Below, one piece after another: positions 14,417-14,638 of a stretch of 15,013 bases of DNA (the first letter of the stretch is position 1; each line of letters opens with the position of its first letter). The translations under genes and the position numbers were made by a program. The notes under the pieces were generated by a model, which did not search any database, was not told where the DNA came from, and saw only the letters and a list, made by a program, of their open reading frames with translations. The DNA comes from a virus (lineage: Duplodnaviria > Heunggongvirae > Uroviricota > Caudoviricetes): the IMG/VR virus record IMGVR_UViG_2534682078_000025; one strand, 5' to 3'.

Positions 14417-14638
14417 TCCATCATCTACACAACCAACGCCATCGAGTCGCTGAACAGCGTAATCCGGCATGCCATCAAAAAACGCAAGGTGTTCCCGACG
14501 GATGACTCAGTGAAAAAGGTCGTGTGGCTGGCAATCCAGGCGGCTTCACAGAAATGGACGATGCCACTGCGGGACTGGCGTATGGCAATGAGCCGCTTTA
14601 TTATCGAGTTCGGTGACCGCCTGGACGGTCACTTCTGA
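14417..14638 (+). mobile_element. C-terminal remnant (about 73 codons) of an IS256/Mutator-family transposase; 5-prime truncated
   Basis: Translation SIIYTTNAIESLNSVIRHAIKKRKVFPTDDSVKKVVWLAIQAASQKWTMPLRDWRMAMSRFIIEFGDRLDGHF carries the conserved C-terminal block of IS256-family transposases (YTTNxIESLN..IR...K.R..FP...KW); GC content rises locally; the upstream part of ORF 14048..14638 is not transposase-like. Confidence 0.65.

Follow-up and report, generated by a model that had tools for sequence, protein, structure and literature searches.

IS1414 is an E. coli element of the IS256 family that carries the astA (EAST1) toxin gene inside its transposase gene (PMC12585946). The IS-excision enhancer (IEE) promotes excision of elements from the IS3 family with flanking deletions, and in vitro it joins ends at microhomologies of 2-6 nt by microhomology-mediated end joining (PMC9943667; bioRxiv 10.1101/2023.06.07.543989; PMC9397093). 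Serotypes O157:H7, O111:H8 and O145:H28 carry iee (PMC9397093). Prophage Sp6 of E. coli O157:H7 Sakai contains ECs1560 (EspX7/NleL), ECs1561 (EspN), ECs1567 (EspO1-1) and ECs1568, and adjoins potB.

The window, meaning the whole 15,013-bp stretch of viral DNA analysed here, aligned over its full length to E. coli O111:H- strain 11128 (NC_013364.1) at 99.86%. RefSeq annotation of strain 11128 places the region at the late end of a lambdoid prophage. The RefSeq gene order is tail genes, gpJ, lom, tail fibres, nleL, espN, three short pseudogenes, a 91-aa hypothetical gene, espK and potB/potA. The potB/potA genes are chromosomal and the prophage/chromosome junction lies at potB, after the full espK. 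Type III effector genes lie between the tail-fibre genes and the prophage end in this annotation, the arrangement of an exchangeable effector locus. Sakai Sp6 likewise adjoins potB; its genes follow the order seen here, nleL-espN-(relics)-espO-espK, and its relic fragments are the same. A literature search for the Sakai/EDL933 locus tags of these relics gave nothing relevant. GC content is approximately 60% in the tail genes and drops sharply near 7001-7500, to about 27-37% across the effector region from 7501 onward. Nine single-base indels separate the window from O111 11128 (window positions 110, 137, 1561, 2500, 5028, 6343, 6967, 9253 and 10903), several of them in homopolymer runs. This set splits gpJ into ORFs 1524-2510 and 2437-5013, nleL into 7553-9304 and 9244-9900, and espN into 10491-10913 and 11078-13891. 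The split genes are either pseudogenes of the source strain or assembly errors.

The right-hand end of the window contains the remnant of an IS256-family element set between effector gene fragments. The features found there were:

13985-14260, minus strand: degenerate EspN-like relic with in-frame stops (tblastn)
14048-14638, plus strand: chimeric ORF of 196 aa, not a gene; intergenic/antisense-relic sequence fused in frame to the transposase tail
14268-14422, minus strand: 3' fragment of an espK/gogB-family gene (espK_A), last 50 codons and stop (NF011913)
14420-14423, no strand: breakpoint between the interior of espK_A and the interior of the IS, from comparison of the window with L002 (intact IS), L007 (intact espK) and L008 (IS2-bearing allele)
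14421-14672, plus strand: right-end remnant (the stub) of an IS1414-like IS256-family element, 252 bp, IS nt 1064-1315
14423-14638, plus strand: transposase C-terminus, 71 codons and TGA stop, residues 332-402 of 402
14644-14672, plus strand: right terminal inverted repeat, 29 bp, GGCATTTACACAGAATCGTGTACAGGGTC
14673-14786, plus strand: nleB 3' fragment, last 37 codons and stop (NF011909, PF24688)
14866-15013, minus strand: 3' part of an EspO1-1-like gene, running off the window end (RefSeq CDS, position)

Positions 14421-14672 are a fragment of an IS256-family member and not an intact member. Over all 252 bp they matched an IS256-family element of E. coli O157:H7 (L002, 4001-4252) with 100% identity. 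The first codon that is entirely IS-derived starts at 14423. The stop codon is at 14636-14638 and the element runs 34 bp further, to 14672. The 72-aa translation of 14420-14635 had two family matches. One was to profile positions 332-377 of 379 in Pfam PF00872 (Transposase_mut), at E 3.1e-8, and the other to positions 296-336 of 338 in NCBIfam NF033543 (IS256 family transposase), at E 4.3e-10. Both fall well short of the cut-off for a whole protein, as 82% of the transposase is missing. The tail translation was identical to the end of the transposase rebuilt from O157. The first-pass annotation had placed about 73 C-terminal codons of an IS256/Mutator-family transposase at 14417-14638. The family assignment was borne out and 71-72 codons were found; the tail does lie in that span, but the remnant really extends from 14421 to 14672.

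The Mutator/IS256-type DDE transposase is represented by its C-terminal end only. Of the two imperfect terminal inverted repeats that bound approximately 1.3 kb in a whole member, the search recovered the right one at 14644-14672, but the left one is absent, together with 1,063 bp. When reverse-complemented, the right repeat agrees with its left counterpart in the full copy at 22 of 29 positions, 10 of them among the outer 11. In this family both catalytic aspartates lie in the part of the transposase that is missing here. The stub retains a single repeat and 18% of the transposase and is therefore immobile and non-coding. It is a dead relic, which can neither transpose nor encode an enzyme. 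The transposase stub in E. coli O111 is already flagged as a pseudogene by public annotation, where the RefSeq entry 'transposase, incomplete, missing N-terminus' corresponds to window 14414-14638. At 52.8% GC the stub forms a small island inside the low-GC effector region. Scanned against Rfam with E values up to 1, 13850-15013 gave just a chance miRNA match, below threshold. Three terminator-like sites were predicted compared to a shuffled mean of 1.0 (sd 1.1).

The sole exact full-length relative of the stub was located in E. coli O157:H7 PNUSAE145590 (L002, 488-4252) and is itself dead. This copy is split by ISEc8 (2,442 bp, 8-bp duplication CTGATGTC) and lies at a different prophage junction, flanked by nleG7 and a DinI-like gene. 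Rebuilt without ISEc8 (L002 488-955 plus 3406-4252), the full element is 1,315 bp in size with a transposase ORF of 402 codons. IS256-family elements are expected to produce a target-site duplication of 8-9 bp; in the window the left junction is deleted. A copy annotated as IS1414 (L003) ends at the base equivalent to the end of the stub and is flanked by an 8-bp target duplication, CTTTGCCA. The stub shares its family and end structure with IS1414 and has a terminal repeat of the same type. However, the stub keeps only the last 252 of about 1,315 bp, and the exact-match relative in O157:H7 is annotated 'IS256 family' without a specific IS name. An astA (EAST1) remnant was sought in the stub and none was found; the prototype astA ORF occupies about nt 795-911 of the L003 copy, upstream of the retained 252 bp. 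The near-identity and embedded astA of IS1414 proper were not seen, as nucleotide identity to the L003 copy was 91.9% and the astA region falls outside the stub. The 92% identity suggests that the parent of the stub was an element related to, but distinct from, IS1414.

To the right of the stub the DNA belongs to nleB. The nleB tail matched NCBIfam NF011909 (NleB family; E 5.1e-19, positions 293-329 of 329) and Pfam PF24688 (E 7.5e-17). The intact nleB of strain OkiPb01711 (L005) was 99.4% identical over this stretch. From 14673 onward the window is colinear with L005 from nt 7001, the first base of nleB codon 290. The right end of the stub is, as read from this colinearity, a simple IS insertion into nleB at codon 290. 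The cassette nleB(+)-espO(-)-espK(-) is intact in L005 and in O55:H7 (L006). A 79-bp spacer lies between the nleB tail and the EspO-like gene. RefSeq CDS WP_001303921.1 (91 aa) corresponds to window 14866-15141 and its translation includes the peptide of the window ORF. Pfam and NCBIfam gave no match for this 91-aa protein. It was named EspO-like because its L005 orthologue is annotated 'secretion protein EspO' in RefSeq and because Sakai Sp6 has ECs1567 EspO1-1 at the position of the 91-aa gene. Effector genes extend approximately 1.9 kb past the stub (nleB tail, EspO-like gene and full espK), contrary to the earlier view that the stub terminates the effector island. The last 375 bp (14639-15013) had been described as AT-rich and unassigned. 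They are AT-rich (38.4% GC compared to 52.8% in the stub), but they are assignable to the IS end, the nleB tail and the EspO-like gene. A 57-codon ORF with a GTG start (14613-14786, plus strand) reads from the IS tail in frame into the last 37 nleB codons.

To the left of the stub the partner is an espK-type gene. The fragment espK_A matched NCBIfam NF011913 (EspK; E 2.3e-31, positions 404-453 of 453), shares 95.7% identity with the 3' end of the complete downstream espK and is annotated as a GogB pseudogene in RefSeq. Its colinearity with the O26 locus L007, where espK is intact, extends as far as ...AAATCCATC. The same upstream DNA runs into a complete espK in O26, O103, O121 and other genomes, and nleL-espN-espK is therefore a cassette in its own right. 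The left break is internal to the IS256-family element, at nt 1064 of 1,315. The sequences at the junction are ...AAATCCATCGTAATT in intact espK, ...AAAGTCATCTACAC in the intact IS and ...AAATCCATCATCTACAC in the window. The TC at 14421-14422 is common to both partners, a microhomology of 2 bp.

Further left, tblastn of EspN (1133 aa) against the relic at 13985-14260 aligned residues 380-463 at 32% identity (E 3.8e-8), and 14196-14260 is an 86% inverted copy of espN 11626-11691. The EspN-like relic predates the IS events, because it is also present beside the intact neighbouring espK. These relics account for the ORF at 14048-14638, which had been read as a chimera of unrelated upstream sequence and the transposase tail. 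Chimeric it is, since residues 124-171 of its 196 alone match a family. Its upstream part is unrelated to the transposase tail but can be assigned: the 5' two-thirds of the ORF are antisense of dead effector fragments, EspN-like and espK/gogB-family. The ORF has a GTG start and is uninterrupted for 196 codons, as a true fusion gene for a new protein with a transposase-derived C-terminus would be. Such a gene has hardly any chance of being real, given that the N-terminal 123 residues translate antisense/intergenic relic without a family match and that RefSeq calls no gene here. In addition, promoter-like sites were no commoner than in shuffled sequence (2 compared to a shuffled mean of 2.5), and a 3-bp difference between alleles (Form III, below) falls within the ORF.

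Three alleles were found at the break, with and without IS2:

Form I: ...AAATCCATC[IS2]GTCATCTACAC..., 298 complete genomes, mostly O157:H7
Form II (window): ...AAATCCATCATCTACAC..., also shown as ...CCATCATCTACAC..., 47 complete genomes, all serotyped records O111
Form III: ...AAATCCATCTACAC..., also shown as ...CCATCTACAC..., 12 complete genomes, including O145:H28 and one O157:H7

The count for Form II is of complete genomes with the 80-bp junction sequence of the window unchanged. Form III carriers include O145:H28 RM12761 and RM13516 and O157:H7 strain 3-5-1. Unlike strain 3-5-1, the O157:H7 records among the matches listed carry Form I. IS2, an IS3-family element, is present at the exact site in 298 genomes and absent from it in 59. 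O157:H7 genomes typically have IS2 between the espK-type fragment and the IS256-family stub, whereas the O111-type window lacks IS2 and 1-3 adjoining bases. The IS2 of Form I is 1,331 bp. The 5 bp on either side of it read CCATC and GTCAT, which means that a target-site duplication is absent. The right flank of Form I follows the intact IS sequence AAAGTCATCTAC one base further than Form II and two bases further than Form III. The microhomology at the IS2-free junctions is TC (2 bp) in Form II and CATC (4 bp) in Form III. The annotation of O157:H7 PV15-279 shows an internal stop in the IS2 copy, and excision of that copy would therefore need transposase in trans. In 1.4-1.5 kb on either flank 5 variable sites were found; none groups Forms I-III and no rooting was possible. 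Forms II and III are one ATC unit apart and could be interconvertible by slippage, or could be two separate excisions.

The first-pass annotation saw IS-mediated shuffling of the locus in the transposase remnant. IS elements did reshape the locus, but the IS256-family element was disrupted by the rearrangement and was not its cause. An IS256-family piece does sit between effector fragments, and IS1414-type elements occur widely in E. coli, often in decayed form (PMC12585946). For the element to have shuffled the locus itself and to mark the end of the effector island is nevertheless very improbable. Its left break is at an internal nucleotide with no terminal repeat, so its own transposase did not make the junction. 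Its right end is a plain insertion into nleB, the element at the break in related genomes is IS2 and the effector genes continue beyond it.

The reading preferred here, with a probability of roughly 0.7, is that the stub is the non-functional right end of an IS1414-like element, left by an IS2-associated deletion that was followed by near-precise loss of IS2. The starting point would be the ancestral nleB-espO-espK cassette, as seen intact elsewhere. A 1,315-bp IS would have entered nleB at codon 290; its right end is present in the window and the rest is supposed. IS2 would then have landed within the IS256-family transposase gene. An IS2-associated deletion would have taken the 5' 1,063 bp of the IS and the 5' 867 bp of nleB, and all the DNA as far as the interior of espK_A, the second espK-type gene, which belongs to the neighbouring nleL-espN-espK cassette. 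Either two IS2 copies would have recombined to cause the deletion, or it would have been one-ended. The state after the deletion, with IS2 and without a target duplication, would be Form I. The O111 lineage would later have lost IS2 almost precisely, its flanks rejoining at TC to give the window junction (Form II). In the sister allele, Form III, the flanks would have rejoined at the 4-bp microhomology CATC.

IS2 insertion normally makes a 5-bp target duplication. An IS2 without the duplication is a classic sign that an IS-associated deletion has occurred or that two copies have recombined. The direction from Form I to Forms II and III is favoured because one deletion converts Form I, while no ordinary IS2 insertion makes Form I from Form II or III. 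It is also favoured because O157:H7 strain 3-5-1 has Form III while the listed O157:H7 records have Form I. This polarity is read from one or two bases and from the missing duplication. The predicted intermediate, nleB...AAATATTT|GAGCCTGTACATAG, in which nleB is joined to the left end of the IS with the 8-bp duplication AAATATTT, was found in 0 of 5,426 complete genomes.

The window junction might instead have arisen by direct illegitimate recombination at TC, as a plain deletion between espK_A and the IS, with the O157:H7/O145 lineage gaining IS2 at that spot afterwards. A microhomology of 2 bp fits the usual pattern of spontaneous deletions, and the flanks are near-identical in all forms, so that polarity cannot be read from them. 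IS2 can bear an extra spacer base beside its left inverted repeat, which could account for the extra G of Form I. However, that G (GT relative to Form III) exactly fits the intact IS sequence. A later IS2 insertion would usually have given a 5-bp duplication, and the flanks here differ. One O157:H7 strain is free of IS2 while the listed O157:H7 records have it. Taken together these points make a direct deletion rather unlikely, and the loss of IS2 from Form I is retained as the preferred reading.

If IS2 was lost in this way, the IEE of EHEC is possibly the agent, by inference from the published activity. As in IEE excision, iee-carrying serotypes differ in whether an IS3-family element occupies one site, and the junctions show microhomologies of 2 and 4 nt with small flanking losses. 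The window itself does not contain iee, and IS2 is not named among the tested elements in the IEE texts consulted (PMC9943667; bioRxiv 10.1101/2023.06.07.543989; PMC9397093). Forms I-III may tentatively be seen as a record, left in wild EHEC, of natural IS2 removal driven by IEE and guided by microhomology, with the same scar in more than one serotype, although we would put this at somewhat below an even chance. If it is true, the break locus would be a ready-made marker for measuring IS excision in nature.

The stub itself matters little. It is an ordinary relic, of modest value as an example of effector-region decay in EHEC prophages. The pattern of decay would be one in which IS elements hit effector genes and a second IS deletes across them, then vanishes leaving a microhomology scar of 2-4 bp. 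A guess from a single genome at the responsible IS misleads here, because IS2, which is probably responsible, is gone from the O111 sequence. Whether IS2 is present or absent could be used to mark lineages or to read out IS-excision activity in the field.

Two further observations were made around the break. In O145 RM9873-C1 (L010, 3054-5595) the junction IS2 is itself broken by another IS3-family element, giving three IS layers at one site. A direct repeat of 164 bp (95.7%) links window 14259-14422 with about 15193-15356, beyond the window end (L001 16894-17057). One copy is the espK-type relic; the other, about 0.9 kb away, is the 3' end of the complete espK. The repeat is a possible substrate for further loss of the stub, the nleB tail and espO.
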